64,000 bases of DNA from Escherichia phage vB_EcoM-P3322, in the sequence record PV191315.1, one strand, 5' to 3'. The notes beneath the pieces are model-generated. The model was given only the letters and a program-made list of their open reading frames with translations. It had not been told where the DNA came from and did not search any database. Shown one piece after another: positions 47,816 through 63,580 of this stretch. Positions within the stretch are counted from its first letter, which is position 1; every line of letters begins with the position of its first letter. Both the position numbers and the translations under genes were made by a program.

Positions 47816-48635
47816 TCAAACTCAAATTTTTGCAAATAAATTTGATGACCTGGAAACTGCTACTTTTGATATCCAAGATTATTCAAAATTGAAATTTGGT
47901 AGTAACCAAGCTGCGCGTCGTATGGGTAAAGAATTGGCACTTCAGTTTTTTGCTCAAGTGGCAATGAAACATATTGGGGAACAATTTGTTATCATTCCTT
48001 CTCCTTATAACCATGTGCATAATGCTGCAACAATGATGACAGATCATTTTATTAATTACTTTAATATGTTGCAATCACAATATGATCAAGGTCGTTCAGC
48101 AGAACTGGACATTATTCATCGTAAAGTTAGCTATATCAACGATTATGGTTTCTTGGATAAAGCTAGTCGTAAGAAACTTATTGATGGGGATACATTCTAC
48201 TGCAACAAAGAATTCTGGGGTGATAAGAAGCTTGTATTCATTGATGATGTAAATATCACTGGAACGCATGAAGACAAACTGATTGAGATCCTTGATGAAA
48301 ATCAAGTTAAAAATGATGTTTACTTCCTGTATTTTGCAAAATACGAAGGTAATCAAGCAGATACCGAAGCTAAACTGAATTTTAACTACATTAATACACC
48401 AGAAGCGTTTGTTAAAATGATTAATGAAGAACGTGATGCACAGTGTCTTGTTCGTCCTATTAAGTATCTTATGGGCCAAAATCATGAAGACTTCAAAATC
48501 ATTCTTAGCCAATTGCCACATTACTATGTAGAGCAACTTTTCTTTGGATGCTTGGGAGAAGGTTACAACCGAATTTCAAAGTATGCTGAAAACTTTGAAT
48601 TCTTGGATCGTTACACAAAACAACACATTCTGTAA
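47808..48635 (+). CDS. phosphoribosyltransferase (type I PRTase)-like protein
   Basis: PRPP-binding-loop-like KKLVFIDDVNITGTHE; 8-nt overlap with HAD gene. Confidence 0.55.
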   Translation: MRNQTQIFANKFDDLETATFDIQDYSKLKFGSNQAARRMGKELALQFFAQVAMKHIGEQFVIIPSPYNHVHNAATMMTDHFINYFNMLQSQYDQGRSAELDIIHRKVSYINDYGFLDKASRKKLIDGDTFYCNKEFWGDKKLVFIDDVNITGTHEDKLIEILDENQVKNDVYFLYFAKYEGNQADTEAKLNFNYINTPEAFVKMINEERDAQCLVRPIKYLMGQNHEDFKIILSQLPHYYVEQLFFGCLGEGYNRISKYAENFEFLDRYTKQHIL

Positions 48636-48648
48636 TAAGGAGCTAAAA

Positions 48649-49122
48649 ATGCTTAAAATTAAAACAGGTAATCTTATTGATGCCGCTAAAGCAGGTGAAG
48701 TAACTGTTATTGCTCATTGTTGCAACTGTATGTGTAATATGGGGGCAGGTATTGCCCCACAAATCAAACGAGCATTTCCTTACGCATATGCAGCAGACTT
48801 AGACACAATGGCTGGTGATCAAAGTAAACTAGGTTGTTTTAGTTTAGGGGTGCCAGACGAACAATCCGACCCTTTGGTATATAATCTATACGGGCAATAC
48901 CGTTACGGATACAATGCTAAAGGTCGTCAGTTGGACTATGATGCACTTTACGATGCACTAATAGCTATGGCTAACGATTTGCTTCTCCGTGACCAAAAAT
49001 GTAAGATCGGCTTACCTATGATTGGCGCTGGATATGCTGGAGGTAATTGGGCTATCATCCAAGTGATGATTGAAGAAACTTTAGTAAAAACAGGTCACGA
49101 TGTGACTATTTATAAACTTTAA
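48649..49122 (+). CDS. macro-domain-like protein
   Basis: Start at ATG 48649 after AAGGAG; GNLIDAAKAGEVTVIAHCCNCMCNMGAGIAPQIKRAFP and GLPMIGAGYAGGNWAII resemble macro-domain loops. Confidence 0.55.
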   Translation: MLKIKTGNLIDAAKAGEVTVIAHCCNCMCNMGAGIAPQIKRAFPYAYAADLDTMAGDQSKLGCFSLGVPDEQSDPLVYNLYGQYRYGYNAKGRQLDYDALYDALIAMANDLLLRDQKCKIGLPMIGAGYAGGNWAIIQVMIEETLVKTGHDVTIYKL

Positions 49123-49134
49123 GAGGAGATTAGT

Positions 49135-49356
49135 ATGGGTGTTTTTGCAGGTATTGTTGCAGTGGTAAGCTTTTTTGTTATTGCTTTTATGCTTAGTTTG
49201 ATTCCAGCTTGGTTACTGTTGCTGGCTTACAACTATGTTGCTGAAGTTATGGGTCATGCAGATATCACTGTCCCAGTAACCTTCTGGACCGTGGTTTGTG
49301 TTTCGTTTATTCTGGCTGTATTACGAGGAATCTTTTCCTCTCATTCAACAAAATAA
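49135..49356 (+). CDS. small membrane protein
   Basis: 73 aa, two TM helices. Confidence 0.5.
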   Translation: MGVFAGIVAVVSFFVIAFMLSLIPAWLLLLAYNYVAEVMGHADITVPVTFWTVVCVSFILAVLRGIFSSHSTK

Positions 49357-49359
49357 GTG

Positions 49360-49418
49360 TTGACATAGTTCTTAAAAAGAGTAAGATGTATCACATGAAG
49401 CGGGGAATAGTTCCCCGC
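49360..49418 (+). promoter_or_regulatory. promoter + 5' GC-hairpin module upstream of terC
   Basis: TTGACA (49360-49365), 16-nt spacer, TAAGAT (49382-49387), GTATCACAT, hairpin GCGGGGAATAGTTCCCCGC; same class as the minus-strand modules. Confidence 0.6.
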
Positions 49419-49435
49419 AAAGAGAGGAGAAAAGA

Positions 49436-50410
49436 ATGCAACTTGGTTTCCCAATTATTGATGTAGTTGTTTTAGTTGGTATTTTAGCATTGTCTATTGG
49501 TATTGATTTCTTTGGTCACAAAGAAAATAAAGAAATTTCATTCAAATCCGCAGTTGGTTGGTCGATCTTTTGGATTGGTGTATCATTAGCTTATTATGGT
49601 TTTGTATACTTCCAACATGGTGCCGATTTTGCTAACTTGTTTTTAAGTGGATATGTGTTGGAAAAATCTTTGTCGGTAGATAACTTGGTAGTATTTGTAG
49701 CAGTATTCGCAAGTTTTGGTATTAAAAGCACACACTTGCAGCACAAGATTCTACTTTGGGGTATTGCAGGTGCGATTGTCTTCCGAGGTGTGTTTGTAGC
49801 AGTAGGCACTTACTTGTTAAGTTTGGGCTGGTATGTTAATATCTTCTTCGGTGCGGTCATCCTTTTCTGTGCAGCTAAAATGGTATTTGCTGGAGATAAT
49901 GACGCAGAAGTTGATTACTCTAAACACTGGGCTACCCGTATTGTTCGTAAACTGTTCCCTGTATCTAATAAAATGGATGGGGAGAAGTTCTTCACAATCG
50001 AAAATGGTGTTCGTGTAGCAACTCCAGCTTTGGTTTGCGTATTCGTGATGGAAATGGTGGATGTAATCTTTGCAGTAGATTCGGTTCCAGCGGTGATCGC
50101 AGTGACACAAGAACCCCTGCTTGTATTCTCTTCGATGTTATGTGCAATCTTAGGTCTACGTGCTCTGTTCTTTGTTCTTAGTGTCGCACTGAAGTATCTG
50201 GTTCACTTGGAGAAAGCAGTTATTGTGGTTCTGGTGTTTGTAGGCGTTAAACTGATGTATCACCCGTTTGCAGAAACATTGCATGAGAAAATGAGTTTCC
50301 TGCCAGCACATATTGATCCAACTATTAGTATGTATATCGTGCTTGGTACTTTGGCCCTTGGTGTTATTGCAAGCTTTATCTTCCCTGAAAAAGAAGAAGC
50401 TACTGTTTAA
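49436..50410 (+). CDS. terC: TerC/Alx-family integral membrane protein
   Basis: Multi-pass membrane protein with YVLEKSLSVDN and FAVDSVPAV...ILGLRALFF signatures. Confidence 0.85.
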   Translation: MQLGFPIIDVVVLVGILALSIGIDFFGHKENKEISFKSAVGWSIFWIGVSLAYYGFVYFQHGADFANLFLSGYVLEKSLSVDNLVVFVAVFASFGIKSTHLQHKILLWGIAGAIVFRGVFVAVGTYLLSLGWYVNIFFGAVILFCAAKMVFAGDNDAEVDYSKHWATRIVRKLFPVSNKMDGEKFFTIENGVRVATPALVCVFVMEMVDVIFAVDSVPAVIAVTQEPLLVFSSMLCAILGLRALFFVLSVALKYLVHLEKAVIVVLVFVGVKLMYHPFAETLHEKMSFLPAHIDPTISMYIVLGTLALGVIASFIFPEKEEATV

Positions 50411-50416
50411 TAAATG

Positions 50417-50440
50417 AGCCTCCTTCGGGAGGCTATTTTA
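50417..50440 (+). terminator. intrinsic terminator
   Basis: AGCCTCCTTCGGGAGGCT hairpin followed by ATTTTAT. Confidence 0.65.
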
Positions 50441-50452
50441 TAGGAGAGACTT

Positions 50453-50803
50453 ATGAGTAATTTTGATGAAATTCAAGAACTTGTTTGGGATTTATCTGGT
50501 GATGTGGATTACATTTCAGATTATCTTTCAAAAGTTTACCCTGGGGTAAGCGTTATGATTGTGACCAAAGATCCAATTAATTTGCCTCCTAACGTGGTAG
50601 CTTGTTGTGGAAGTGGTTCAGGAGAAGTAGAGCCTGTATCTCGTTGGGAATTAACTAAAGCTGTTTCAAAACGAAATGGTGAAGTTTTGAATATTGATAT
50701 CGAACAAATATGGACTTCTCCAGCAGCCAAATGGAATGATCCTAATGGTTGGGATTTGTTCTTCTGGGATAATGAAACTGATGATGAGGTATTTTTAAAA
50801 TGA
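50453..50803 (+). CDS. hypothetical protein
   Basis: 116-aa acidic ORF. Confidence 0.5.
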   Translation: MSNFDEIQELVWDLSGDVDYISDYLSKVYPGVSVMIVTKDPINLPPNVVACCGSGSGEVEPVSRWELTKAVSKRNGEVLNIDIEQIWTSPAAKWNDPNGWDLFFWDNETDDEVFLK

Positions 50804-51045
50804 AATACTTGTTGGTTGTGTTTGAAAATATTTGTTTTGCAATAGGGTTGTTTGTTGTAATTTTTGTATTGACAAGCGTAATCAACGGCAGTAAAGTGAG
50901 TTTATACCGAGATGGAGAGCAACTCTATTGCTTCTCTGGAGATTTCAAACACAGATGTATTAATAGTCAAAATGAGGAAAGCAAATATGAAAAAACTAGC
51001 CCTGATTTTAATTGGTTGTATCTTTTTAACAGCTTGCGAGGATGA
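50800..51045 (+). CDS. hypothetical membrane protein (uncertain)
   Basis: ATGA overlap with upstream stop; N-terminal TM helix; 3' end overlaps lipoprotein gene. Confidence 0.35.
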   Translation: MKYLLVVFENICFAIGLFVVIFVLTSVINGSKVSLYRDGEQLYCFSGDFKHRCINSQNEESKYEKTSPDFNWLYLFNSLRG

Positions 51046-51424
51046 AACAAATCCTGCACAATACCAACAACCTCCTCAACAATACACTCAACAAGGATCT
51101 GACGGAGATACAACTATTATCAACAATGGTGGCGGTTCTAGTAGTAGTGGTGTTGGTGAGTTTGCTACAGGTATGTTGTTAGGGCATATGATGAGTGGCA
51201 GTAGTAATCGTAGCAGTGGTGATTATAACGATAACAGAACGATTATTAATAAGCATTATAATACACCTAAACCGAAAACTAATTTTTATGGTAAGCCTAA
51301 ACAAGAGATAAAAACTTATGAAAAGCCGAGACAAACTTTTAAAACAAATAGTAGCTATACAACTCGTAAATCTTACAATAGCCCTTTAAGTAAAAAGAGT
51401 TCATCTCGTAGCAAGCGACGTTAA
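50987..51424 (+). CDS. putative lipoprotein
   Basis: Start at ATG 50987; lipobox MKKLALILIGCIFLTAC; Gly/Ser/Asn-rich middle, basic C-terminus. Confidence 0.5.
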   Translation: MKKLALILIGCIFLTACEDETNPAQYQQPPQQYTQQGSDGDTTIINNGGGSSSSGVGEFATGMLLGHMMSGSSNRSSGDYNDNRTIINKHYNTPKPKTNFYGKPKQEIKTYEKPRQTFKTNSSYTTRKSYNSPLSKKSSSRSKRR

Positions 51425-51438
51425 TAAGGAGAAAAACA

Positions 51439-52032
51439 ATGACAATTTCTATTCGTACTTCCATCGTAGGTGTTAAAAGGTTGCCTAATGCTTTGCAAAT
51501 CACACGCGCTTTGAGGGATACATTCTCTGCTGTGGACGAGCATAAGATGCTTGATAATCTTTCAAATTGGCCCTATTTCCATTATTTTAAAAATGAAGAT
51601 GACGAGTTTATAGACGCTGTTTCTTATGGTTATGATTTCGGTAAGGAGGTTTCTGCTGAAGAATTTGTAGCTATGGTGTTCCCAAACGGTTTGCCTACTC
51701 GCAGTAAACGTAAAAAAGGACCAAAAAACAAGAAACGTGCTACTAATAAAGCTACCATTTTCTTTACTGATGGCACACAATATACGATTAAAGATTTTGA
51801 AGAGGTATCTTATACAGCAGGTGGGAATCTTTCTTTCTACACCATCAAAAAACAAAACTCTACGTTCAGCCATGTTTCTAACATGATTGAAATGTTAGTA
51901 GAAGATATTGAAAGCGTGGCTGTGTTAGGTATGCATAAAAGCTTTTTAATTACAAATATTTCAGATTTCAGTGCAAGTTTATCTGGCCCTGATTTTGAAG
52001 CCACGACCACGCATTTCGCTTTTAAGGTGTAA
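51439..52032 (+). CDS. hypothetical protein
   Basis: 197-aa ORF. Confidence 0.5.
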   Translation: MTISIRTSIVGVKRLPNALQITRALRDTFSAVDEHKMLDNLSNWPYFHYFKNEDDEFIDAVSYGYDFGKEVSAEEFVAMVFPNGLPTRSKRKKGPKNKKRATNKATIFFTDGTQYTIKDFEEVSYTAGGNLSFYTIKKQNSTFSHVSNMIEMLVEDIESVAVLGMHKSFLITNISDFSASLSGPDFEATTTHFAFKV

Positions 52033-52035
52033 GTT

Positions 52036-52626
52036 ATGCATACCGAGAGAGACTTGCAACTCTTGTGGTGGGAAGTGATGCAGGAAATAAAAGAAGATTT
52101 TCCTGCTTACTACAACATGTTACGTGAAGCAGGATATAAAGCTTGTGTTAGAAACAAAGTGAATAACTCTTTCGGTTGGTGCAACTACCGAGATAAAATT
52201 GTTGTTGTAAATTGGCACTTGCATAAGAACTCCACAAGAGATATGATCGTGGATACAATGAAGCACGAAATTGCTCATGCTATTGATGGTTGTATGGGTA
52301 AGTTTAGTAGGCACGGTGCTCATTGGCAAAAACTGGCAGCAGAATTAGGGGCTAATCCTAAAGCCACTTCCAAAGAGCCGTTGAACCACGAATATAAATA
52401 TGTTCTTGTTCTGGTAGATAGGTTTGCGACAAGATGTGTTAGAGGTTATAATCGTAAACCTAATCGCATGTACCCAGGTAAGCAACCTAATATGTGGTTG
52501 AAATCAGATAAAGAAGGGACCGAAGGAAAATTATGGTTGTATAAATGGGACGATTGGGTTAAAGTAGCTAAAGAGTACGGTGTTTCACCATATATAAGAG
52601 ATGCAGAAGAGGAGAATGAAGAATGA
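52036..52626 (+). CDS. SprT-like zinc metalloprotease-domain protein
   Basis: HEIAHAIDG (HExxH) followed by HGAHWQ. Confidence 0.6.
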   Translation: MHTERDLQLLWWEVMQEIKEDFPAYYNMLREAGYKACVRNKVNNSFGWCNYRDKIVVVNWHLHKNSTRDMIVDTMKHEIAHAIDGCMGKFSRHGAHWQKLAAELGANPKATSKEPLNHEYKYVLVLVDRFATRCVRGYNRKPNRMYPGKQPNMWLKSDKEGTEGKLWLYKWDDWVKVAKEYGVSPYIRDAEEENEE

Positions 52627-53735
52627 CAAGTCCATTTTTAAAAGCAGCTACTGGTGGTCAGAAGAAGCCTGAAATGAGCGTATTTGCTGCAACAACAGAT
52701 GCAAGTAAATCTGTATTCGCTCCAAGCGTGTTAGATGCCAGTCCTGTTTATGCACCAGCGGCACCGCAAGAAGTTCCAGTTTTGCCTTCTATGACCCGAC
52801 AAGAGATCGAAGAGATTGGGGCAGAGGCAGGAACAACCTTGCGTTCCTTGAATGCCGAGGTATTAAAACATCAACGTAGTAATCAAGGCGATCAGATGAG
52901 TGAACGACTCACAGCTTTGATTAAACAGGCAAAACAACTTGATCCAAACTCTATTAAACAAAGCAAGGGTATTACTAAACTCATTAAAAAAGTTATGGGT
53001 ATGAAAGAAGATCTGTTTGGGGAGTTTGATAATGTTAATAACCGTATTGAAGAGTTGGTAAAGAACCTTCAAATGGATATTCGCAAAGAAGAAGATTCCT
53101 TGGTATATCTTGAAAAGCTACATCAAGCTATTGGACAATATGCTGCAAGTTTGAACCGAGATATGCAGCTTCTAACAGCAACCTATGAAAAAGAAGAACA
53201 AGCTTTGGCTGCTCTTCCAGAAGATGCAGTAGAACAGCGACAAGTGATCCGAGATACTTTGGATCTTCTGGAGATTCGTATTGCAGATTTAAAAGCATTG
53301 CGCCTACTGTGTGTCCAAATGGGACCGCGTGTACAAGGTATGCAAAAAGTTTCTGCAAGCTTAATGCGATCTGCGCGTAACATAGTAAATAATGTTATTC
53401 CTGCTTACTCTGCTAACTTCTCAATGTATATCGAGAGCTTACGTCAAATGAAAGCAGCAGAGACGCAGAATAACGTTCTTGATGAATTTAACCTGGCAAT
53501 TAAACTGGGTAGCGATCTTGCCACACAGAATCAGATCGAAGCAGCAGCACTGGCTAACCGTCAAGTGTTGGATATTGAAACTCTGCGTCACGATCAGGAA
53601 AACTTGGTTAAGATGTTGGAAGAAACTAACCGCATCAATACGGAAGCCCGTGCTGCTCGTGTTGATTATATTAATGAAGTTCAATCTCTGGAAGACGGGA
53701 TGGTAGCTGCTGTGAAACGAGGGCTTGGTAAATGA
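52623..53735 (+). CDS. hypothetical helical protein, possibly TelA-like
   Basis: 370 aa, Gln/Glu/Leu-rich helical composition; size and Ter context fit TelA; no motif verified. Confidence 0.5.
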   Translation: MTSPFLKAATGGQKKPEMSVFAATTDASKSVFAPSVLDASPVYAPAAPQEVPVLPSMTRQEIEEIGAEAGTTLRSLNAEVLKHQRSNQGDQMSERLTALIKQAKQLDPNSIKQSKGITKLIKKVMGMKEDLFGEFDNVNNRIEELVKNLQMDIRKEEDSLVYLEKLHQAIGQYAASLNRDMQLLTATYEKEEQALAALPEDAVEQRQVIRDTLDLLEIRIADLKALRLLCVQMGPRVQGMQKVSASLMRSARNIVNNVIPAYSANFSMYIESLRQMKAAETQNNVLDEFNLAIKLGSDLATQNQIEAAALANRQVLDIETLRHDQENLVKMLEETNRINTEARAARVDYINEVQSLEDGMVAAVKRGLGK

Positions 53736-53929
53736 GAATCCGTATCTATATAATTGATGAAGACATTGGTGTCCGTTATGATGACGAAAAACGATTCGCA
53801 CCGATGGGAGGTATATATCCCCCAAGTGTTCTAGCAGTTTGTCGTGATTGTTATATTTATGAAGGTTGTCGTAACTTCCGTAAATTCGAACTCCTTGCAG
53901 ATATTGACTTCAATGAGGAGGAGGAGTAA
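53732..53929 (+). CDS. hypothetical protein
   Basis: 65-aa ORF. Confidence 0.45.
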   Translation: MRIRIYIIDEDIGVRYDDEKRFAPMGGIYPPSVLAVCRDCYIYEGCRNFRKFELLADIDFNEEEE

Positions 53930-54102
53930 TGAAAATATTACGAGTGAATATTGAAACTGCTTGGTGTGGATGCAATGAGGTTGTGGATATCGAAATTGAA
54001 GATGATATGTCTCAAGAGGATATAGAAGATCTTGCGCACGAAACCTTTCAGGATTATTGTAATTACGGGTTCCATATTTTAGAGGAGGAAGAAGATGTTT
54101 AA
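53929..54102 (+). CDS. hypothetical small acidic protein
   Basis: 57-aa ORF with GAGGAGGAGG RBS. Confidence 0.35.
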   Translation: MKILRVNIETAWCGCNEVVDIEIEDDMSQEDIEDLAHETFQDYCNYGFHILEEEEDV

Positions 54103-54298
54103 CTACGATAACGATCCTAATATTATCCAGTTAACCCGACAAGAACTGATCACAATCATTGAAGATGCTTTTATTGATGGCTGGAATACACAAGATAATG
54201 ACTGGGGTGGACCCGAAGCTTTTCTGGAACATCATAAAACTTATGGAGACTCTTGTGAAACCACTGTAGCTCTTGATAATCTGAAGGAGGGTTTGTAA
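54095..54298 (+). CDS. hypothetical protein
   Basis: 67-aa ORF. Confidence 0.45.
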   Translation: MFNYDNDPNIIQLTRQELITIIEDAFIDGWNTQDNDWGGPEAFLEHHKTYGDSCETTVALDNLKEGL

Positions 54299-54861
54299 TG
54301 GGTTGTTTTAGCTTTTTGTGCAAAGAATCGGGCAAAGCTGCCCTTTCTACTTCTTTCGACGGATCACCTTGCTACCTCTTTCTTTTGAAGGACGGTGTTG
54401 TTATTGAAGAGATGTATGGCAACTATGATAGTTATGGTTGTGTTTTCTCTGGAAAGGAGGATGAAAACGGCGTTCGTGAACGGTTCGAATGGGCTATGGA
54501 TTGGGGTAAGGTTTGTGATTTGATGCATTCCTCAAATCCAAGGGACGGTATCGCTATGGTGCTGGAAGAGTACTTTACAGGTGAAATCCCTACAGAACAA
54601 TCTGACGGAGATCCTAACCAAGGTTGGGGTGATGGTGAAGAAGATCCAGATTGTTTTTTCAGCACAGAAAAGAATAAGTTTAAACGTGTTGACAACCCTT
54701 ATCACAAAGTGCATAATACTCTCATTGAAACAGAAGATGACAAGATGGAAATTGAAGAAGATGATCCTCTTGTAACACTTCCTATAAGTGAGTTACAAAA
54801 GATCACTAAGGAAGCTTACGATTTGGGCTTCAAAATTGGTAGAGGAGGTATGCGTGTTTAG
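54298..54861 (+). CDS. hypothetical acidic protein
   Basis: 187-aa ORF. Confidence 0.5.
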   Translation: MGCFSFLCKESGKAALSTSFDGSPCYLFLLKDGVVIEEMYGNYDSYGCVFSGKEDENGVRERFEWAMDWGKVCDLMHSSNPRDGIAMVLEEYFTGEIPTEQSDGDPNQGWGDGEEDPDCFFSTEKNKFKRVDNPYHKVHNTLIETEDDKMEIEEDDPLVTLPISELQKITKEAYDLGFKIGRGGMRV

Positions 54862-55132
54862 ATTCAATATTCAAGAAGAAAAAAGTCAGGATTTACCTAT
54901 TGCTTTCGAAGATCTTGACGTAGGGGCCACATTCATGTATTATGATGCCTATGAAGACGCAGGGTTGGATACCTACCGTAACTTGGTGTTCATTAAAAAT
55001 TCCACAAACAGTGCGATTTGTATTAATGGATCACTAGCACAACGAGGCTATACTCATTGCATCCCACCAGATACAAATATGGTGGAAGTAGATTTAGAAG
55101 TTACCAATATTACACTTAAGAAGGAGAAATAA
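54854..55132 (+). CDS. hypothetical protein, Ter-associated small paralog 1
   Basis: GTG start after AGAGGAGG; (D/E)DLDVGATFMYYDAYEDAGLD...VTNITLKK parallels 56154-56423. Confidence 0.45.
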   Translation: MFRFNIQEEKSQDLPIAFEDLDVGATFMYYDAYEDAGLDTYRNLVFIKNSTNSAICINGSLAQRGYTHCIPPDTNMVEVDLEVTNITLKKEK

Positions 55133-55133
55133 T

Positions 55134-55928
55134 ATGTCCGAGAAAATCAGCCTGAAAAAACGTCAAGAAAACCTTGCTTTCTCTCTGAAAAAGAATAAGA
55201 ACCTGAACGAAGGTAAGATTGTTCTTCGTGTAGCATGTGCTCTAGATATTTCTGGTAGTATGCATGGTCTATATTCTAGTGGGGTAGTGAGTGATTTTGT
55301 AGGTAAACTGCTTCCTTTTGGTATGCTGTTCGACGATAATCAACAAATTGATATGTGGGCCTTCAATACGAGTTCCCAAGAGCTTACTCCAGCAACAGCA
55401 GATGTTTACGATGACTATGTTGGTAAATGTATGCGTAATGTTCGTATCGGAGGTGGAACAAATTACGCCCCTGTAATGGCGGATATCTACGATGAGTATT
55501 TTGGCACTGTTACTAAATATATTACCACTAAACAAGTGGTACAAGAGGAGGCTCCAAAGAAAGGTTTCTTTAATCGTCTACTTGGTAAAACTGAAACAGT
55601 ATCTGTAGAGCGTGAAAAGGTCGTAGCTGTATCTGAACCAGGTGCTGACGTTACCCCTGGTGTTGTATTCTTCCAAACGGATGGTGAGAATGGTGATCCT
55701 AGTGCTGTTCGTCGTCTTATCGAAGAGAATAAGAATAAACCTATTTATTGGTTCATGGTTGGCGTTGGTAATGAGAAGTTTGGCTTCCTGAAAGAACTGG
55801 CAAATGCTTATGATAATGTTGGTTTTATTGGTATTAAAGATTTAGACTTGACAGATTCAGAGCTTTATGACAAACTCTTATCTGAAGAGTTCGGAGAGTG
55901 GGTTGTTAAAGTAGGTGCTAAAAAATGA
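55134..55928 (+). CDS. von Willebrand factor A domain protein (TerY-like)
   Basis: MIDAS DISGSM...GGGTNY...FQTDGENGD; N-terminal MSEKISLKK like TerD N-terminus. Confidence 0.75.
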   Translation: MSEKISLKKRQENLAFSLKKNKNLNEGKIVLRVACALDISGSMHGLYSSGVVSDFVGKLLPFGMLFDDNQQIDMWAFNTSSQELTPATADVYDDYVGKCMRNVRIGGGTNYAPVMADIYDEYFGTVTKYITTKQVVQEEAPKKGFFNRLLGKTETVSVEREKVVAVSEPGADVTPGVVFFQTDGENGDPSAVRRLIEENKNKPIYWFMVGVGNEKFGFLKELANAYDNVGFIGIKDLDLTDSELYDKLLSEEFGEWVVKVGAKK

Positions 55929-56173
55929 TCGACGAGCTTGCCTCTCAAGTCATAGAAAATTATTGGCGCGAGAGAGAAGCTTTCATTATGCGCAGTCTCA
56001 AAGAGTATTTCATTGGGACTGTGCGAATGGAAGATATTGTAAGTAGAGTAGAGATTCATGTATGGCCTGATTATGAAGAATGGGTTGACAAAGAAAATGA
56101 AAATGCTATAATTCTTCGTATATACAAACCGGAGATAACATTAGGAGGAAGAAGTGTTAAACTTCGAAATTGA
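55925..56173 (+). CDS. hypothetical protein
   Basis: 82-aa ORF. Confidence 0.45.
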   Translation: MIDELASQVIENYWREREAFIMRSLKEYFIGTVRMEDIVSRVEIHVWPDYEEWVDKENENAIILRIYKPEITLGGRSVKLRN

Positions 56174-56423
56174 TGAGCAAAAAGTAAATAAACGATGCCT
56201 TACCATTAAAGATTTGGATGTAGGAGATACTTTCGTCTATGAAAATGCATTTGACGAAAATGGTTTAGACCTTAGTGAAATCATTGTTTATTTAAAAGTA
56301 GATGATGGGGAAAACGATTATTCTGCTGTAGAACTAAACCATCATGCACAATTAGTATCAATCCAAAACACATCTAAGCTTTTGGAAGTAGAATTGACTG
56401 TAACTGGTATTACACTTAAATAA
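56154..56423 (+). CDS. hypothetical protein, Ter-associated small paralog 2
   Basis: GTG start after GGAGGAAG; KDLDVGDTFVYENAFDENGLD...VTGITLK. Confidence 0.45.
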   Translation: MLNFEIDEQKVNKRCLTIKDLDVGDTFVYENAFDENGLDLSEIIVYLKVDDGENDYSAVELNHHAQLVSIQNTSKLLEVELTVTGITLK

Positions 56424-56438
56424 TAGAGGAGACAAAAG

Positions 56439-57041
56439 ATGACTGATAAAATTTCCCTGAAAAAAGGCTCTAGCGAAAAAATTTCCCTGAAGAAAGTTGC
56501 TCCGGCTCTGAAAGAACTGCGCCTGGAATTCTCTTGGAAATCTGATTCTAAACTGGATCTGGATGTAAGTGCACTGGTTTGTCGTCATAATGCCGCTGGC
56601 AATCCTGAAATGTTGTCTGCACGTCATCTGGTTTGCTATGCTAACAAGTTTGATCCTGAACGTTCTACCTTCGCTGGTGACGATGTTCGTGATGGAACTG
56701 GTAGCATGGAGCAGATTGATATTACTCTGGCTAAAATCTCTCCTGATGCACAAGAGATTGCCTTTGTTCTGACCATTGATGATGATACAGGTCTGAAACG
56801 TTTTGGTCATGCTTCTGAAGGTATGCTTAAAATCTTCGACTCCGAGCGCAATGTGGAAATTCTGGATTTTGACTTCCTGGCTCCTGAAGTAGCTGGCAAC
56901 ACAATCTGCCACGTGGCTTCCTTGGTTCGTGAAGATGGGGAATGGAAGCTGAAAGCATATGGTGTAGGTAAAGCTGGTCTGGATATTTGTGATGTGGTGA
57001 TGGCCTTCGGTGGTAAAAAAGAATGGTATGAATGTCCATAA
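56439..57041 (+). CDS. terD: TerD-family protein
   Basis: KISLKKG...LEFSWKS...DLDVSALV...GDDVRDGTG...EQIDITLAKI...IAFVLTIDD...GEWKLKAYGVG follows TerD strand pattern. Confidence 0.85.
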   Translation: MTDKISLKKGSSEKISLKKVAPALKELRLEFSWKSDSKLDLDVSALVCRHNAAGNPEMLSARHLVCYANKFDPERSTFAGDDVRDGTGSMEQIDITLAKISPDAQEIAFVLTIDDDTGLKRFGHASEGMLKIFDSERNVEILDFDFLAPEVAGNTICHVASLVREDGEWKLKAYGVGKAGLDICDVVMAFGGKKEWYECP

Positions 57042-57140: not shown

Positions 57141-57662
57141 TTGCTGATAAAAAACTTTGTAACAGTTGCGTTACTATCCTTAACTGCTTTTACATTTACA
57201 CCTGTTGTGGCGAAAGCCGAAGCTGCAAACGTAAAAACCGCTAAAGTAGTTCACAAATGTACAAAGCAATATAATGATAAAATTCTATTAGCTTGTGCAA
57301 TTTACGCAGAAGGTCGCGGTCTGGGTAAAAAAGGAATGAATGCCGTTGGGAATGTGGTAATCAACAGAAGAAATGATACATACTTCCCTAACACAGTCAG
57401 AGGAGTCTTGTTCCAGAAAGGGCAATTCTCATATGCGAAAACTTTTAACGTAACAGAGAAAGATAAGTGGCAGGAAGCAAAAGCAATAGCGGAGCGTTTA
57501 CTTTATTTAGAGAAACATTTTCCTGAATTGCGGTCTGTTTTAGATGTTACTAAAGGTGCTCTATACTTCAAGAAACGGAATATAAGAACACACTGGGAAC
57601 GTGATATGCGTCTTGTTTATCGAGATAAAGTGCATGGTTTCTATCTACCAAAGGGGAGTTAA
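57141..57662 (+). CDS. SleB/CwlJ-like cell-wall hydrolase with signal peptide
   Basis: TTG start after AAAGGAGG; signal LLSLTAFTFTPVVAKA; LLACAIYAEGRG...AVGNVVINRRN...FPNTVRGVLFQKGQFS. Confidence 0.7.
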   Translation: MLIKNFVTVALLSLTAFTFTPVVAKAEAANVKTAKVVHKCTKQYNDKILLACAIYAEGRGLGKKGMNAVGNVVINRRNDTYFPNTVRGVLFQKGQFSYAKTFNVTEKDKWQEAKAIAERLLYLEKHFPELRSVLDVTKGALYFKKRNIRTHWERDMRLVYRDKVHGFYLPKGS

Positions 57663-57948: not shown

Positions 57949-58178
57949 TGGGAGAAGTCATTGAAGTCAATTTTCGCACTAAACAGAAAGTGCAAAAATA
58001 TGTCGTTATTAAAAACATTTGCGTTGTCTGCTTCAATACGGTAATATACGACTCACGACGCGGAGAAAACGAAAATGAACCTTACATTGAAATTTCTAAG
58101 AACAAAGGTCAATGTATTTGTAAGAACTGTGCAGTAGCTATTAAGGAGGTTGTAAATGAAAACGCTTGGGACCAATGA
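57948..58178 (+). CDS. hypothetical zinc-ribbon protein
   Basis: Start at ATG 57948 (TGATG overlap); CVVC...CICKNC. Confidence 0.45.
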   Translation: MGEVIEVNFRTKQKVQKYVVIKNICVVCFNTVIYDSRRGENENEPYIEISKNKGQCICKNCAVAIKEVVNENAWDQ

Positions 58179-58347
58179 AACTGGCGAGATCTCTCTTCAA
58201 GAAGTGACAAACGACAAACTGATTAAACTACGGGACGTAGCCCGTGACCATCTCCAAGAATCTTTTAAAGAATATATGGAAGCACGAGATCGTGTGATCC
58301 AAATCCAACAAGAAATGATTAAACGTGGGATTGTAGCTGACAGTTAA
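58156..58347 (+). CDS. hypothetical protein
   Basis: 63-aa ORF. Confidence 0.4.
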   Translation: MKTLGTNETGEISLQEVTNDKLIKLRDVARDHLQESFKEYMEARDRVIQIQQEMIKRGIVADS

Positions 58348-58363
58348 TATAACGGAGGGGAGA

Positions 58364-58927
58364 ATGATTTATTATATTACTCCCTATCTGACAGGAAATA
58401 TCGGCAAGGCTATCAATGAAGCCATTGCCGTTCTTCCAGATGATAGTTGGGTGTGTTTAAGAGATACCGATACAATGTTCCTCCTACCTGATCAACCGTC
58501 TATGCTTGAAGAGCTTGTTATGTCAAACCCGCCTTTTGATGTAATAGGTGCAACTTGTAACAGGTTAGGCAGTGGTTATCAACTTTTCTCTAACCAAATT
58601 AACGATGATCCAGATATTCTAAACCATATAGAATATGCTAAGATTGCAAGAGAATATCATAAAGTGAGTGTTGAAGAAGTTCCTTTCGGAACACCTCTGG
58701 CAGGTTTCTTTTTGCTTTTTAGAAAATCATTGTGGAATGAAATTCCTTTCGAAGAAAAATCTATCCAATTCGACTTAATTTTCTCTCGCACTTTACATGA
58801 AAAAGGAAAGAGGTTAGGATTGATGCGGGGAATGTATCTGTTTCACATTTACAGATTAGGTCAAACAAATCCTCAACGGTCTATACATCATTTATTACAC
58901 TGTCATGATCACAGTAAAACTATTTAG
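58364..58927 (+). CDS. putative glycosyltransferase (GT-A-like)
   Basis: N-terminal IYYITPY...GNIGKAINEAIAVLPDDSWVCLRDTDTMF (DxD-like DTD). Confidence 0.4.
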   Translation: MIYYITPYLTGNIGKAINEAIAVLPDDSWVCLRDTDTMFLLPDQPSMLEELVMSNPPFDVIGATCNRLGSGYQLFSNQINDDPDILNHIEYAKIAREYHKVSVEEVPFGTPLAGFFLLFRKSLWNEIPFEEKSIQFDLIFSRTLHEKGKRLGLMRGMYLFHIYRLGQTNPQRSIHHLLHCHDHSKTI

Positions 58928-58935
58928 GAGAGAAA

Positions 58936-59619
58936 ATGGAAAATATTAAAATCGGAGTGGGTGTTATCACTGTAGGTGTCCGTCCACTTAAAGACTACCT
59001 TGTAACAGATCCACGTGCAGATTTTCGAGTATTCAACGATCCAGATCGTAAAGGTGTAGCTTATGCCAGGAATGAACTTATGCACCAGTTTTATGAAGAA
59101 GGTTATGATTATTGGTTTATTTTTGACGATGATTGCTACCCAGTCATGGAGGGATGGGAAACATACTTTGTAGATCAAGCTGTCTCTGGAGGATGGGATT
59201 TCTTTGGTATGCCGGAGTATTTCAAAGATAAAGTTGTTGGAAGCAAAGGAGAAGTTATTCTCTGGGAACTTGCAATGTGTCAATTTGCAATGTATTCTCG
59301 TGCCGTTGTTGAGAAGATGGGTTATTTCCGTCCTTACACTCACGGTTATGGTTTTGAAGATGCTGAATGGGGACACCGTTTGCAAGCTGCTGGTTTGAAT
59401 CATGGTATTCAGGCAACACCTTGTCCACTTCGTATCATGGCTTATATCCACCCAGACGATGTTTTTGGAAACAATCCTATGCCTTTTGCTAACCTGACAA
59501 AAGAAGAGAAAGAGGCTGCTATTGGGATTAACTGGGAAGAATATAAAGCATCTTTAGAGGATATTAAAAATGGGAAAATCCGAATTTCCTATGAGGAGGC
59601 ACTAGCACATGTCAAATAA
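58936..59619 (+). CDS. glycosyltransferase family 2-like protein
   Basis: GVGVITVGVRP...KGVAYARNE...YWFIFDDDCYP (DxD)...GYGFEDAEWGHRL. Confidence 0.6.
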   Translation: MENIKIGVGVITVGVRPLKDYLVTDPRADFRVFNDPDRKGVAYARNELMHQFYEEGYDYWFIFDDDCYPVMEGWETYFVDQAVSGGWDFFGMPEYFKDKVVGSKGEVILWELAMCQFAMYSRAVVEKMGYFRPYTHGYGFEDAEWGHRLQAAGLNHGIQATPCPLRIMAYIHPDDVFGNNPMPFANLTKEEKEAAIGINWEEYKASLEDIKNGKIRISYEEALAHVK

Positions 59620-60559
59620 AAAATGGTCTAAACTAAAAATTGATGCAAAACCTCACAGCGGTTGTGACTATCATCGTATTGTTATACCATTTAACAACAA
59701 CAATAATATTCAACCTAAGAAAGATGTTGTTGTGTTTAACCGTATCCACTCTAAAGGTGCAGAATACGTTTTATCTTTGAAACGTCAAGGTGTTAAGGTT
59801 GTTGTAGACTTAGATGATTTTTACCAACTTAATCCAGAACATTATTTAGCAAGTCTATACGAGTCAAACACTCATGCTATTGTAGCTATGGTTAAGCTTG
59901 CTGATGTGGTTATTGTGACTACGGAATATTTGGCATATAAGATCCGTCACTTAAATAGGAATGTTGTTGTGATCCGAAATGCACTTCCTTTTGATAGCGG
60001 ACAATTCACTTTGTCAAATGATCGTTCATCCGGTACCCCTGTTGTATGGGCTGGCGGTGCTAGTCACGAACCAGACTTACGACTAGTCTCTAATACTTTC
60101 GATGATGAACTTCTTACTATTGCGGGATATGAAGCATCACAAAGCATCACGGGACAAGAGTGGATTAAGATTCGCAGAAATTTACCAAATGCCAAATATA
60201 AAGCCGCTGTAAAAGATTTAGATAATTACATGAGTGTTTACGAAAGTCATGCTATTGCTATAGCTCCTTTGGTAGATAATGATTTTAATAATTGTAAAAG
60301 TAATCTCAAAATCCTGGAAGCTGGAGCAAAAGGTATTCCAATTGTTTGTTCTAAGGTATTACCTTATTTTAACCCTGTAGATGCTCGCGCTGTTGCTTAC
60401 GCAGAGAATAAAGCAGAATGGCATTACGAAATTGTTAAGCTTCTTCGCAATCCAAACTATCGGGAAGATCGTGGCTTGTTCTTGGCTGAACATGTTCGAA
60501 CACATTATAATCTGGCAGATGCAAACGAGTTGCGACGCCAGGTTATTGAAAGTTTGTAG
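59609..60559 (+). CDS. putative glycosyltransferase-like protein, tandem paralog 1
   Basis: 316 aa; VVVFNRIHSKG...VVDLDDF...ADVVIVTTEYLAYKI...NVVVIRNALPFD; paralog of 60567-61511. Confidence 0.45.
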   Translation: MSNKKWSKLKIDAKPHSGCDYHRIVIPFNNNNNIQPKKDVVVFNRIHSKGAEYVLSLKRQGVKVVVDLDDFYQLNPEHYLASLYESNTHAIVAMVKLADVVIVTTEYLAYKIRHLNRNVVVIRNALPFDSGQFTLSNDRSSGTPVVWAGGASHEPDLRLVSNTFDDELLTIAGYEASQSITGQEWIKIRRNLPNAKYKAAVKDLDNYMSVYESHAIAIAPLVDNDFNNCKSNLKILEAGAKGIPIVCSKVLPYFNPVDARAVAYAENKAEWHYEIVKLLRNPNYREDRGLFLAEHVRTHYNLADANELRRQVIESL

Positions 60560-60566
60560 GTGAAGT

Positions 60567-61511
60567 ATGGGACAAATAATTCTTGACAATCGTAACGGAA
60601 TCAATTATAGTGTCTGCGATTTCCATAGGGTAGTGCTGCCTTACTCAAGGCAGTTCTCTTCACAACCTAAACACAACGTTTTCGTTTTTAACGGGGTGCC
60701 AACAAAAGGTAAAGAGGGCTTTTTAGCCCTTAAAAACCTAGGCTTTAAAATGGTTATGGATTTGGATGACTCTTTAGTTATTCCAAAAGGACACATGTTA
60801 GAAGGTATTTTTGAATCAGGTATTCGTGAACATTTAAAATGGTTTTTAGAGCACAGCGATCTCGTTACAACTACGACACCTGCTTTGCAAGTTGAACTTT
60901 CACAATACAATGATAATGTGCACATAATCCCTAATGGACTTCCTTACGATGAAGGTCAATTTGTGTTGACCCGTGATCGCTACTCCAAAACTCCATTAGT
61001 CTGGGCTGGAAGTGAAACACATAAACAAGACTTGGCTATCTTGCCCGATTTTGGTAAAGATCTTACAATATGTGGTTTTCGTAGGGATTCTGAAGTTTTA
61101 AGTAGTCGTGAATGGTCTGTGATCAGAGAAAATGTAGCACCAACTTGTGTTTATGAAGGTGTAAGACCATATGCCAACTACATGGAATCTTACGATGGTC
61201 ATCAAATCAGTCTTGCGCCATTGATTGATAACGTGTTTAATAATGCAAAAAGCAATCTTAAAATTCTTGAGGCAGGTGCTAAGGGTTTACCTTTGATCTG
61301 TTCTCCTCGTGAGAATTATCATACACAAGAGTTTAAAGATTTGTTATTCTTTGCTGAAACACCTTCCGAGTGGAAAGATATTACGGAATACTTATTAAGT
61401 GCTCCCGATGTTTGCATGGAGAAAGGATTAGCATTAGCTAAGTATGTCAGGACTCATTATCACATTGATGTGTTGAATGAGCGTCGTAGACTTTTATTTG
61501 AGGAGCTATAA
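60567..61511 (+). CDS. putative glycosyltransferase-like protein, tandem paralog 2
   Basis: 314 aa; VFVFNGVPTKG...VMDLDDS...SDLVTTTTPALQVEL...NVHIIPNGLPYD. Confidence 0.45.
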   Translation: MGQIILDNRNGINYSVCDFHRVVLPYSRQFSSQPKHNVFVFNGVPTKGKEGFLALKNLGFKMVMDLDDSLVIPKGHMLEGIFESGIREHLKWFLEHSDLVTTTTPALQVELSQYNDNVHIIPNGLPYDEGQFVLTRDRYSKTPLVWAGSETHKQDLAILPDFGKDLTICGFRRDSEVLSSREWSVIRENVAPTCVYEGVRPYANYMESYDGHQISLAPLIDNVFNNAKSNLKILEAGAKGLPLICSPRENYHTQEFKDLLFFAETPSEWKDITEYLLSAPDVCMEKGLALAKYVRTHYHIDVLNERRRLLFEEL

Positions 61512-61789
61512 TGATTAACACTTTTGATTTTGAATACACCACTCGTAACGGGAAAGCTTTAGTCGTGGAGGTGGATTACTATTATGAAGAGCCTAACCCG
61601 CTTTCTCGTGAAAGTGATTGGGATTACCACGGAGGGCTTTTAATTGACGGTATTCGTTTTTATGAAGGCTCTACAGAAGTTTTTGAAAAAGATTTAAATG
61701 TAACTGTAGCAGAAATTGCTTTCCAATTTAGAAAGCATATGGAAGAACTAGAAGCAGAATATATGATGGAGACTAACGAACCATTTTAA
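61511..61789 (+). CDS. hypothetical protein
   Basis: 92-aa ORF, ATGA overlap. Confidence 0.45.
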   Translation: MINTFDFEYTTRNGKALVVEVDYYYEEPNPLSRESDWDYHGGLLIDGIRFYEGSTEVFEKDLNVTVAEIAFQFRKHMEELEAEYMMETNEPF

Positions 61790-61801
61790 CAGGAGAACAA
61801 A

Positions 61802-63580
61802 GTGTCGCACATTATAACTAAATATGGATTTGATGTTGATCTTAGCAAGGAAGGACATACAGGTTGTCCGCGCTGCATGAAAAATGGCAAGGATCGCTCT
61901 CGTAATAACCTGATGGTTTATGGATTAGATTCTAATGGAGAGCATAAAGGTGCTAAGTGCTTTGCGTGTGAATACACTATTCCTAGCGTAGAATGGTTAC
62001 GAGAAAATGGTGAAGTTTTAGAAGAAGAGGAGGAGATTGTGGGTTCGGAATTTAATAAACAGATTCATCGTAAAATTGTTCAAGAAACATCAACCAACCC
62101 ACGTGGTTATCGAGGCATTAAAGAAAAAGTTTCATCTTTCTATGGTGTTCGTTATGAATACCGCCAGGAAGGGGATCAGATGGTAGTAGAAAGTTGTTTA
62201 TATCCAACTACTATCGGTAAAGAATTAGTTGGTTTTAAGCGTCGTATTCATCCTAAAGATTTCAGTAAACCTATTGGTCAAGTAGGTAAAGATGTAGATC
62301 TTTTTGGACAAATTCGTTTTGCAGACCGTTCTCATACTGTGGTAATTACAGGTGGTGAACACGATGCTCTGGCAGCTTATCAAATGCTGTCTGAAAACTT
62401 GGACAACAAATATGAACTTCCAGCAGTAGTTAGTGGCACAACTGGTGAAACCAGTATGTATAAACAAGTTCAGGCACAATATCCTTTCTTTGAAAAATTT
62501 AAGAAGATTATTGTTTGCATGGATAATGACAAAGCAGGTAATGAGGCATTTGAAAATATTGTTAAGGTGTTGCCTCGTAACAAAGTCTACCGTATGCAGA
62601 TGGATCTTAAGGATGCCAATCAGTATCTGGAAGAAGGTCGTGCAAAAGATTTCGTAAAAGCTTTTTGGAGTGCTCGTCTATACACCCCAGCAGGTGTTTA
62701 TGCTTCTAATGTCTTGTATGAAGCTGCATTAGAATGCTTGGAATCCAAGATGATTACCTTGCCTCCTTTTATGCGTGTTGCTGCAAATATGCTGGGTGGT
62801 GGTTTAGTAGAGGAAGAGATTACAGTTATCCTGGCGAAGACCAGTATCGGTAAAACTTTGATGGTGAACGAGATCACCAAACATATTATTGTTGCGCACC
62901 CAGAACATACCCTAGGTATTCTGTCCTTGGAAGCAACTTATAAGAAATATTCTCGTAACCTGTTGTCCTCGTTCCTGCATATTCCTCTACACAGGAAAAC
63001 ACCGGAAGAGAAATTTCAAATCTTGGAAGAGAATAAAGAAAAAATCCTAGATTTTTACGAAAGAGAAGATGGATCACCACGTTTTTATGTGTGTGATGAT
63101 CGTGGAGCAGATGTGGAGTCTATCAAAGAAAAAGTTTTGGAGATGATCATCTATTTTGGAGTAACAATTCTTGTTATCGACCCTTATTCTGATTTGCTTT
63201 CTGGTATGGATGTTCAAGCCCAGGAAGAGTTAGCAACATGGTTGAAGCGCATCATGAAAGAGTATGCTATAACTATTATTGTCATCTCACACGTTAAGAA
63301 ATCGGCTAATGGTGGCAATGAACACTTAACAGAGGACGATGCAATGGGTAGTAGTTTCTTGGCTAAAGGTGCTGGTATTACCTTGGCTTTGGAACGAGAT
63401 AAAGCCGCTGAAGACCCTGTAGAACGCAATACGACTCATTGCTTTATCCTAAAAAACCGTGAGTTCTCAGAAACTGGTCCGGCAGGGCAGTTTTACTATG
63501 ACATTAGAACTGCAACTCTGCATGACAAAGAGCAGTATTTCAACAATCCTGCTAATTTGCCTACGGATAGCAACTATTAA
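61802..63580 (+). CDS. bifunctional DNA primase/helicase (T7 gp4-like)
   Basis: GTG start; Zn ribbon CPRC...CFAC; TOPRIM VVITGGEHDALAAY and IVCMDNDKAGNEA; DnaB-like Walker A AKTSIGKT, Walker B ILVIDPYSDL. Confidence 0.85.
   Translation: MSHIITKYGFDVDLSKEGHTGCPRCMKNGKDRSRNNLMVYGLDSNGEHKGAKCFACEYTIPSVEWLRENGEVLEEEEEIVGSEFNKQIHRKIVQETSTNPRGYRGIKEKVSSFYGVRYEYRQEGDQMVVESCLYPTTIGKELVGFKRRIHPKDFSKPIGQVGKDVDLFGQIRFADRSHTVVITGGEHDALAAYQMLSENLDNKYELPAVVSGTTGETSMYKQVQAQYPFFEKFKKIIVCMDNDKAGNEAFENIVKVLPRNKVYRMQMDLKDANQYLEEGRAKDFVKAFWSARLYTPAGVYASNVLYEAALECLESKMITLPPFMRVAANMLGGGLVEEEITVILAKTSIGKTLMVNEITKHIIVAHPEHTLGILSLEATYKKYSRNLLSSFLHIPLHRKTPEEKFQILEENKEKILDFYEREDGSPRFYVCDDRGADVESIKEKVLEMIIYFGVTILVIDPYSDLLSGMDVQAQEELATWLKRIMKEYAITIIVISHVKKSANGGNEHLTEDDAMGSSFLAKGAGITLALERDKAAEDPVERNTTHCFILKNREFSETGPAGQFYYDIRTATLHDKEQYFNNPANLPTDSNY

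Follow-up and report, generated by a model that had tools for sequence, protein, structure and literature searches.

A conserved four-glycosyltransferase cassette upstream of the primase-helicase gene of Escherichia phage vB_EcoM-P3322 and its possible acceptors

A 64,000-nucleotide (nt) stretch of DNA from Escherichia phage vB_EcoM-P3322 (sequence record PV191315.1), referred to below as the window, carries between positions 58364 and 61511 four consecutive open reading frames (ORF1 to ORF4; Table 1) that encode glycosyltransferases, and raises the question of what these enzymes glycosylate. An earlier note on this DNA, made from the sequence alone, had described a cluster of four putative glycosyltransferases including a tandem paralogue pair, had considered a role in DNA hypermodification plausible and had named alteration of host surface polysaccharide as the alternative. 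In the analysis reported here the cluster is upheld and DNA emerges as a most improbable acceptor. The acceptor is possibly one or more virion proteins of the phage itself, an assignment that we make tentatively.

All four reading frames were recovered exactly where they had been placed, on the + strand, and they lie, as claimed, upstream of a primase-helicase gene, from which they are separated by one short reading frame (ORF5). ORF1 and ORF2 are 8 nt apart, ORF2 and ORF3 overlap by 11 nt, ORF3 and ORF4 are 7 nt apart, and ORF4 and ORF5 overlap by 1 nt. This spacing is operon-like, and a search of the + strand within the four-gene cluster for terminator-like sites found none; the scan for promoters and terminators did not yield usable transcription boundaries. 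The region from 58000 to 62000 is 99.8% identical to that of Escherichia phage vB_EcoM_ASO2A and shares 98-99.5% identity with some sixty further phAPEC8-like phages (genus Phapecoctavirus, subfamily Stephanstirmvirinae). PHROGs holds dedicated families for the four proteins (14179, 2456 and, twice, 7162; E = 1e-78 to 1e-149), the match of ORF3 to PHROG 7162 having an E-value of 3.2e-149, and in the RefSeq genomes NC_052660 (tuntematon) and NC_020079 (phAPEC8) the four genes already carry the label 'glycosyltransferase'. These family matches, together with Pfam matches, structure models of ORF1 and ORF2 and a BLASTP comparison of ORF3 with ORF4, support the cluster of four enzymes with its tandem pair. 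By fold and family the genes are ordinary Leloir (nucleotide-sugar-dependent) glycosyltransferases of already annotated identity.

Comparison of the glycosyltransferase genes with their phi92-like orthologues in phage PaulScherrer gave saturated synonymous divergence (pS 0.68-0.81) and nonsynonymous divergence (pN) of 0.16-0.24. Given that the neighbouring primase-helicase gene shows the same pN/pS regime, the pattern of substitution indicates that the four are functional genes under purifying selection and not chance reading frames. The maximum Kyte-Doolittle hydropathy over 19 residues was 0.76-1.65 among the four proteins, and no transmembrane segment is predicted in any of them.

ORF1 and ORF2, between which no relationship was found at the sequence level, are both predicted to adopt a single Rossmann-like alpha/beta/alpha GT-A fold, and on this modelled fold, in which a core strand ends in a DxD motif, both are assigned as GT-A-fold glycosyltransferases. 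The earlier note had named the lack of a glycosyltransferase fold in predicted structures as evidence that would tell against it; the models of ORF1 and ORF2 show such a fold. In ORF1 the motif is D34-T-D36, which follows strand 29-33 and is invariant as D34-x-D36 in 22 sequences, and this bears out the GT-A-like character read earlier from the N-terminus. The three motifs listed for ORF2 (ARN, DDD and GFED) were located as A44-R45-N46, D64-D65-D66 and G139-F-E141-D142. The DDD motif stands at the end of core strand 59-64, and the GFED residues belong to a motif that reads Y138-G-x-E-D142. Among 16 homologues no variation occurs at N46, D64-D65-D66, G139, E141 or D142.

The description of ORF2 as GT2-like holds for its motifs and its fold but fails for membership of the Pfam GT2 family (PF00535): ORF2 scored 13.3 bits against a gathering cut-off of 23.3, and weak matches to this model were returned for 8 of the 16 ORF2-family members. 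ORF1 gave no match to it. Because these scores fall below threshold, ORF1 and ORF2 are classed as GT-A enzymes by fold and fall outside the Pfam GT2 sequence family. Among 1.84 billion cluster representatives searched, 980 belong to the ORF1 family, and ORF1 defines a sizeable GT-A family, of about a thousand 50%-identity clusters, that lacks a Pfam model. Its domain occurs either as a stand-alone protein of ∼180 residues or in C-terminal fusion to TOD1/MUCI70 or GT2 domains, in one case additionally with a TylF-type sugar O-methyltransferase. A search of NCBIfam with the cassette proteins returned no match, searches of PDB sequences with each protein and each family profile returned chance-level matches only, and Foldseek comparison with viral structures recovered only generic GT-A proteins, a result that is uninformative on the acceptor.

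ORF3 and ORF4 share 41% identity over 303 residues (BLASTP, E = 5e-79), so that their earlier description as clear paralogues is confirmed, and by sequence comparison they belong to a GT4-like GT-B family. Taken alone, ORF3 remained under threshold for both PF13692 and PF13524, and ORF4 gave a borderline match to PF13524 (25.2 bits, cut-off 25) and a match to PF13439 at residues 82-125 (E = 1.3e-3). Across the family, matches were obtained to PF13524 in 18 of 24 members, to PF13692 in 15, to PF13439 in 8 and to PF00534 in 2. The family profile found a single weak C-terminal match among PDB sequences, to the trehalose synthase TreT (E = 0.18). Residues invariant in the 24 homologues are, in ORF4 numbering, H20, R21, D65, D67, D68, H76 and the stretch K228-S-N-L-K-x-L-E235. 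The DLDD motif noted earlier in both proteins is thus present and its aspartates (D65, D67 and D68) are invariant; its identity with the metal-binding DxD of GT-A enzymes does not hold, because the motif sits in the N-terminal (acceptor-side) half of what is predicted to be a GT-B-type protein. Retaining GT4 enzymes have an E-x7-E motif. In the ORF3/ORF4 family only the first glutamate (E235) is invariant, with no conserved column near position 243, where ORF4 has leucine; E-x7-E being absent, the stereochemistry of the reaction is not inferable.

Single-copy homologues of the pair occur in a prophage of Serratia sp. M24T3, in a 46-kb phage contig (L009) and in a 135-kb myovirus (L012). They are 51, 40 and 46% identical, respectively, to ORF3 and 39, 36 and 38% identical to ORF4. 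Since these homologues are always closer to ORF3, ORF3 represents the ancestral copy and ORF4 the derived duplicate. The duplication is confined to Stephanstirmvirinae-like lineages.

The cassette is conserved in more than 130 phage genomes. It is found throughout both genera of the subfamily, Phapecoctavirus and Justusliebigvirus, and at 66-77% amino-acid identity in phi92-like phages, which include the BASEL phages PaulScherrer (Bas60) and EmilieFrey. Some records name Campylobacter, Acinetobacter or Pseudomonas as the phage host although this region is 98-99% identical to that of E. coli phapecoctaviruses; mislabelled hosts or contamination probably account for them. Elsewhere in near-identical genomes, outside the window, nrdAB and thyX adjoin a complete rmlB-A-C-D operon, and the records with rmlC are essentially those with the cassette (Escherichia 105, Klebsiella 8-10, Phapecoctavirus 3, Justusliebigvirus 3).

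More distant relatives carry the cassette in part or in other surroundings. A relative of ∼50% identity (L010) retains the whole order of Ter-type genes, SleB-like gene, four glycosyltransferase genes and primase gene. In the myovirus L012, also upstream of a primase-helicase gene, an ORF1-like gene, a nucleotide-sugar epimerase/dehydratase gene, an ORF2-like gene and a single ORF3-like gene are present. In the Serratia prophage, colinear ORF1-, ORF2- and ORF3-like genes (41, 36 and 51% identity) are flanked by lysis genes on one side and by HNH/TerS/TerL/capsid genes on the other, and in L009 the ORF3- and ORF2-like genes separate TerL from portal. In a further locus (L011), ∼1.4 kb downstream of TerS and beyond four small reading frames, a GT-B homologue is clustered with a GT2 enzyme, a GT_PLOD-type glycosyltransferase and a DegT sugar aminotransferase. 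In Cellulophaga phage phi12:3 a glycosyltransferase fusion with an ORF1-like domain, preceded by a Methyltransf_24 gene, lies between a minor capsid protein gene and the prohead protease and major capsid protein genes. These gene orders indicate that the core of the cassette, ORF1-ORF2-ORF3, is mobile. The Methyltransf_24 protein of phi12:3, gp39 (L007:3868-4335), is annotated as a 'DNA methylase'; the domain is TylF-like (small-molecule or sugar O-methyltransferase), and the annotation appears to be wrong.

The reading that we prefer is that four soluble, cytoplasmic Leloir glycosyltransferases, produced from one operon, act in sequence to build a short oligosaccharide on an acceptor other than DNA. 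The sugar donor would at least partly be dTDP-L-rhamnose made by the products of the phage rmlBACD operon; one enzyme would attach the first sugar, the remaining enzymes would lengthen the chain, and the ORF4 duplicate may provide a further or alternative linkage. With one or more virion proteins as the acceptor, glycosylated particles would result, as in mycobacteriophages Che8, Corndog and Myrna, chloroviruses and mimiviruses. The analysis shows the reading frames, the GT-A fold of ORF1 and ORF2, the GT-B family of ORF3 and ORF4, their conservation and the co-occurrence with rml genes; sequential action, the rhamnose donor and the identity of the acceptor are what we infer. The signature of oligosaccharide assembly has four parts: four distinct soluble Leloir transferases share one operon; glycosyltransferase content varies between lineages; nucleotide-sugar-modifying genes are embedded in the cassette or co-occur with it; and family members are fused to other glycosyltransferases and to sugar methyltransferases.

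Virion proteins are tentatively favoured as the acceptor for three reasons. Homologues of the cassette genes adjoin packaging or head genes in all four small-phage contexts examined. The carriers are mostly strictly virulent, and a product that leaves with the progeny would best justify an investment of eight genes. Lastly, the closest outside relatives of ORF2 lie in the type of mycobacteriophage operon shown to glycosylate capsids. Virus-encoded rhamnose synthesis together with several cytoplasmic glycosyltransferases also serves the capsid and fibril glycans of chloroviruses and mimiviruses. The mycobacteriophage relative is gp104 of the cluster F1 phage Wee, the N-terminal domain of which matches the ORF2 family (hhalign 99.2%, E = 2.6e-19). 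Wee gp104 is the first glycosyltransferase of a right-end glycosyltransferase operon whose last gene product, gp108, is 86% identical to Che8 gp110, a protein described as essential for capsid glycosylation (PMC12363180).

Several observations weigh against virion glycosylation. BLASTP and hhalign detected no relation of the four proteins to Che8 gp108, gp109 or gp110, and for this reason the link to a proven virion-glycosylation system stands at one remove. A tblastn match to Che8 gp108 (E = 0.003) was lost on profile comparison with hhalign, and tblastn of all four reading frames against the Che8 locus gave no significant match at gp110. Work by Freeman et al. in 2023 is said to place the glycans of mycobacteriophages on Ser/Thr-rich C-terminal tails; no such tail was found in the last 30 residues of eleven structural proteins of the near-identical phage tuntematon, which covered the major capsid, decoration, tube, sheath and neck proteins, and the only notably Ser/Thr-rich 25-residue window among them (0.48) was at the N-terminus of gp147. 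No relevant report came up when the literature was searched for phi92 virion glycans or for glycosylation in Stephanstirmvirinae. In the present phage the cassette belongs to the replication/early region, outside the structural module, and its positions in the small phages could be 'moron' sites. As for the donor, the co-occurrence with rml genes is limited to one phage lineage and is phylogenetically non-independent, and the natural isolate ESCO37 keeps the glycosyltransferases while lacking rmlA and rmlB. The fuller proposition, that Stephanstirmvirinae decorate virion proteins with a rhamnose-containing oligosaccharide whose donor comes from the phage dTDP-rhamnose pathway, is doubtful. A candidate glycan methyltransferase in the head module, tuntematon gp161 (L003:29604-30083, annotated 'DNA methyltransferase'), had been suspected to resemble Cellulophaga gp39 and was rejected on its match to an XkdF-type prohead protease; its annotation, too, appears to be wrong.

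The alternative offered in the earlier note, modification of host surface glycans, remains a live rival, if a rather improbable one. Soluble glycosyltransferases would then work at the inner membrane face on lipid-linked or lipid A-core intermediates, and the altered glycan, which may be lipopolysaccharide (LPS), enterobacterial common antigen (ECA), the NGR glycan, O-antigen or colanic acid, would block superinfection or the re-adsorption of progeny to debris. GT4-like GT-B and GT2-like enzymes are the standard enzymes of LPS and O-antigen synthesis, the PHROGs category of each of the four families is 'moron, auxiliary metabolic gene and host takeover', surface glycans (ECA/NGR) are the receptors of these phages, and the genes immediately upstream are envelope-related (the SleB-like hydrolase and TerC/TelA/TerD). 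The four proteins lack membrane segments, however, and no flippase, polytopic glycosyltransferase or Gtr-type polyprenol-phosphate glycosyltransferase is annotated nearby. The Serratia prophage speaks on both sides. Its cassette follows lysis genes, a frequent site of cargo genes, but it is co-directional between lysis and packaging genes and is not beside an integrase or attachment site, which classical seroconversion genes adjoin. Exactly such envelope remodelling has been proposed for the identical cassette of phage ZCKP1 (PMC6141743); given mostly virulent carriers with short cycles, the commitment of eight genes (four glycosyltransferases and rmlBACD) to a transient surface change is harder to justify.

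Another acceptor outside the virion, the envelope and DNA is unlikely but deserves mention, namely a small molecule, a free oligosaccharide or glycolipid, a host protein (by EarP-like rhamnosylation) or RNA, such as phage tRNA. This view draws on the HAD/PRTase_3/Macro/TerC/TelA/vWA-TerF/TerD cluster, with its predicted nucleoside-like metabolite, that the cassette follows here and in L010, on the label 'putative disaccharide synthase' given to the GT-B pair by the BASEL annotators and on the 10-13 tRNAs that these phages encode (PMC6563267). The linkage to the Ter-type genes is, however, missing in L012 and in the small-phage contexts L008, L009 and L011, while the ORF1-ORF2-ORF3 triad persists, and a functional link between the glycosyltransferases and that cluster, once considered, has been downgraded on this ground. 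Searches of Pfam, NCBIfam and PDB sequences gave no specific similarity to EarP, LpxB or tRNA-glycosylating enzymes.

In the remaining alternative, the enzymes would place rhamnose or another sugar on a modified DNA base, globally or at motifs, and so evade restriction. This is the role that the earlier note had found plausible, and Olsen et al. (2020) had the same idea in speculating on rhamnosylation of hydroxymethylated nucleotides, given an rml operon amid nucleotide-metabolism genes (PMC7552041). Genes for the primase-helicase, Dam methylase and DNA polymerase lie directly downstream of the cassette, L009 encodes an Nmad5 protein ∼6 kb from its glycosyltransferase genes, and the genome contains an atypical 332-residue ThyX homologue and a MazG-like pyrophosphatase. 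Base glycosylation needs an activated base, however, and no dCMP/dUMP hydroxymethylase, TET/JBP protein, DNA kinase or DpdA-type enzyme was found in the annotations of near-identical genomes or in targeted Pfam scans; the scan of ten candidate genes, rather than of the whole genome, recovered nothing beyond a MazG-like protein, a nucleotidase of the NT5C-like kind and a divergent ThyX, and no TET/JBP domain was found beside the Dcm-like gene. Weak matches to the TET-associated DNA glycosyltransferase family TAGT (PF20691) recur in 15 of the 16 ORF2-family members, all below threshold; the match of ORF2 itself reaches 19.5 bits where 27.5 are required and covers profile positions 53-90 of 205 (∼38 positions, the DxD region). 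ORF2 also has a weak match to PHROG 842 (beta-glucosyl-HMC-alpha-glucosyltransferase).

Published restriction data point away from DNA. Maffei et al. (2021) found Vequintavirinae together with related phi92-like phages 'exceptionally susceptible' to restriction-modification systems 'despite a putative dTDP glycosylation machinery', and the phi92-like phages bear the same four-gene cassette (PMC8594841). In a set of HincII-typed phages that included sequenced Phapecoctavirus and phi92-like isolates, resistance was limited to ESCO10, ESCO47 and ESCO58, of which the latter two are named as Tevenvirinae (PMC10269720); ESCO10 would appear to be the third of the three Tevenvirinae genomes of that study. 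Four glycosyltransferases with relatives fused to glycosyltransferases and sugar methyltransferases suit oligosaccharide assembly better than base glycosylation, and the loci examined in small temperate carriers of the triad contain no pathway for base modification. With a base-activating enzyme missing from these searches, TAGT scores below threshold and related phages sensitive to restriction, glycosylation of DNA is very unlikely; the small probability left to it allows for a sparse or motif-specific modification.

The Nmad5 protein of L009 (L009:16754-17359, − strand) is a full-length match to 'nucleotide modification associated domain 5' (E = 1.8e-41) in the structural region of that contig. 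The 'ThyX' of tuntematon, gp249 (L004:1403-2401, outside the window), has 332 residues and a partial, weak Thy1 match (33 bits), and its gene is preceded by one for an NT5C-like deoxynucleotidase.

The answer matters beyond this locus, as phAPEC8- and phi92-like phages are among the most often isolated broad-host-range coliphages, are used in therapeutic cocktails and devote ∼7 kb (four glycosyltransferase genes and rmlBACD) to glycosylation. We know of no virion-glycosylation system previously described in phages of Gram-negative bacteria. Were rhamnose-containing glycans to be carried by the virion, this would be the first such system, would extend virion glycosylation beyond actinobacteriophages and would involve a portable module, ORF1-ORF2-ORF3, of which small temperate phages also carry copies. 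Effects on antibody recognition, serum stability or adsorption would be likely, and therapeutic phages would be affected in their immunogenicity, their pharmacokinetics and possibly their host range. Were the host envelope the target, virulent phages would exclude superinfection in a new way. In either case, the improbability of DNA modification makes an unproductive line of work avoidable.

The surroundings of the cassette are listed in Table 1. The earlier placement of the glycosyltransferase genes beside replication and nucleotide genes is correct for the primase-helicase gene and incorrect for nrdDG, from which an 11-kb Ter-type cluster and the SleB-like hydrolase gene separate them. Positions 47159-57041 are occupied by this stress-response or 'nucleoside-like metabolite' cluster, present here in a virulent phage, and L010 shares the synteny from TerC to TerD (its locus starts within TerC). 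A perfect sigma-70 consensus promoter (TTGACA, a 16-nt spacer with TG, TATAAT) is found at 56085-56112 on the + strand, just upstream of a small reading frame at 56154 and of the TerD gene. The SleB-like protein is called 'endolysin' in RefSeq; near-identical genomes encode a separate T4-type lysozyme elsewhere. A split nrdD gene was considered and rejected, as NrdD is whole. The 472-residue reading frame at 42519-43937, which the annotation of phage SKA64 calls 'class III ribonucleotide reductase', has no Pfam match. A search of the whole window for Rfam families gave none. Beyond the window, Dam methylase and DNA polymerase I genes follow the primase-helicase gene in near-identical genomes.

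ORF5, which has 7 Lys and Arg against 21 Asp and Glu residues, has homologues between the glycosyltransferase cassette and the primase-helicase gene in L010, L012 and PaulScherrer as well; the cassette of the Serratia prophage is followed by no counterpart. Its membership of the glycosyltransferase system is uncertain, and possible roles are those of a DNA mimic or an accessory protein in replication.

Table 1. Coordinates of the glycosyltransferase cassette and of surrounding features in the window
Feature	Position	Strand	Description
NrdD/NrdG	44038-46331		NrdD complete at 44038-45864
HAD hydrolase	47159-47815		
PRTase_3	47808-48635		ComF-like
Macro domain	48544-49122		
TerC	49436-50410		
TelA	52623-53735		
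vWA-TerF	55134-55928		
TerD	56439-57041		
SleB-like cell-wall hydrolase	57141-57662		PF07486, E = 1.9e-17; signal-peptide-like hydrophobic N-terminus
ORF1	58364-58927	+	187 residues; minimal soluble GT-A-fold glycosyltransferase (predicted); family without a Pfam model
ORF2	58936-59619	+	227 residues; soluble GT-A-fold glycosyltransferase (predicted), GT2/GT7-like
ORF3	59609-60559	+	316 residues; predicted GT4-like GT-B-type glycosyltransferase, ancestral paralogue copy
ORF4	60567-61511	+	314 residues; predicted GT-B-type paralogue of ORF3
ORF5	61511-61789	+	92 residues, very acidic; PHROG 4240 (function unknown)
Primase-helicase	61802-63580		Toprim and DnaB_C domains

Set beside known phage and viral glycosylation systems, the cassette is not a Gtr-type seroconversion system. 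Both are phage-encoded glycosylation systems, and GtrA/GtrB/Gtr-type proteins alter surface glycans and adsorption; the Gtr arrangement of flippase, bactoprenol glycosyltransferase and polytopic glycosyltransferase is, however, membrane-bound and acts in lysogens, whereas the enzymes described here are soluble and their carriers mostly virulent. Nor is the cassette a DNA-glycosylation system of the T-even/TAGT kind, since a family match above threshold and an enzyme that makes the acceptor base were both looked for and not found. It shares with these the location of phage glycosyltransferases among replication genes and the recurrent weak matches of the ORF2 family to TAGT and PHROG 842, but here the scores are below cut-off over the DxD region, no hydroxymethylase or TET partner was found in the annotations or in the genes scanned, and the DNA of published relatives is restriction-sensitive. 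The capsid and fibril glycosylation machinery of giant viruses (PBCV-1 A064R and related proteins, Mimivirus R655/R699) is similar at the level of fold only, at 7-17% identity; its hosts are eukaryotic, its donors UDP- or GDP-linked, and shared ancestry would reach no further than the GT-A superfamily.

The nearest comparison is with the virion-glycosylation operons of mycobacteriophages (Che8 gp108-110, Corndog gp38 and Myrna, as cited in PMC11256854 and PMC12363180). The cassette differs from these in that it lacks a homologue of the GT25-type Che8 gp110 (BLASTP with ORF1 and ORF2 found none), has two GT-B enzymes where the operons have none, belongs to phages of a Gram-negative host with a dedicated dTDP-rhamnose pathway and occurs with capsid and tube proteins that are without Ser/Thr-rich tails. 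In common, several soluble GT-A-type glycosyltransferases are encoded by the phage in a cluster without membrane components, TylF-type sugar methyltransferases accompany relatives of both, and ORF2 is homologous to the first glycosyltransferase of the Wee operon. The cassette is only loosely tied, through ORF2, to the mycobacteriophage operons that glycosylate virions.

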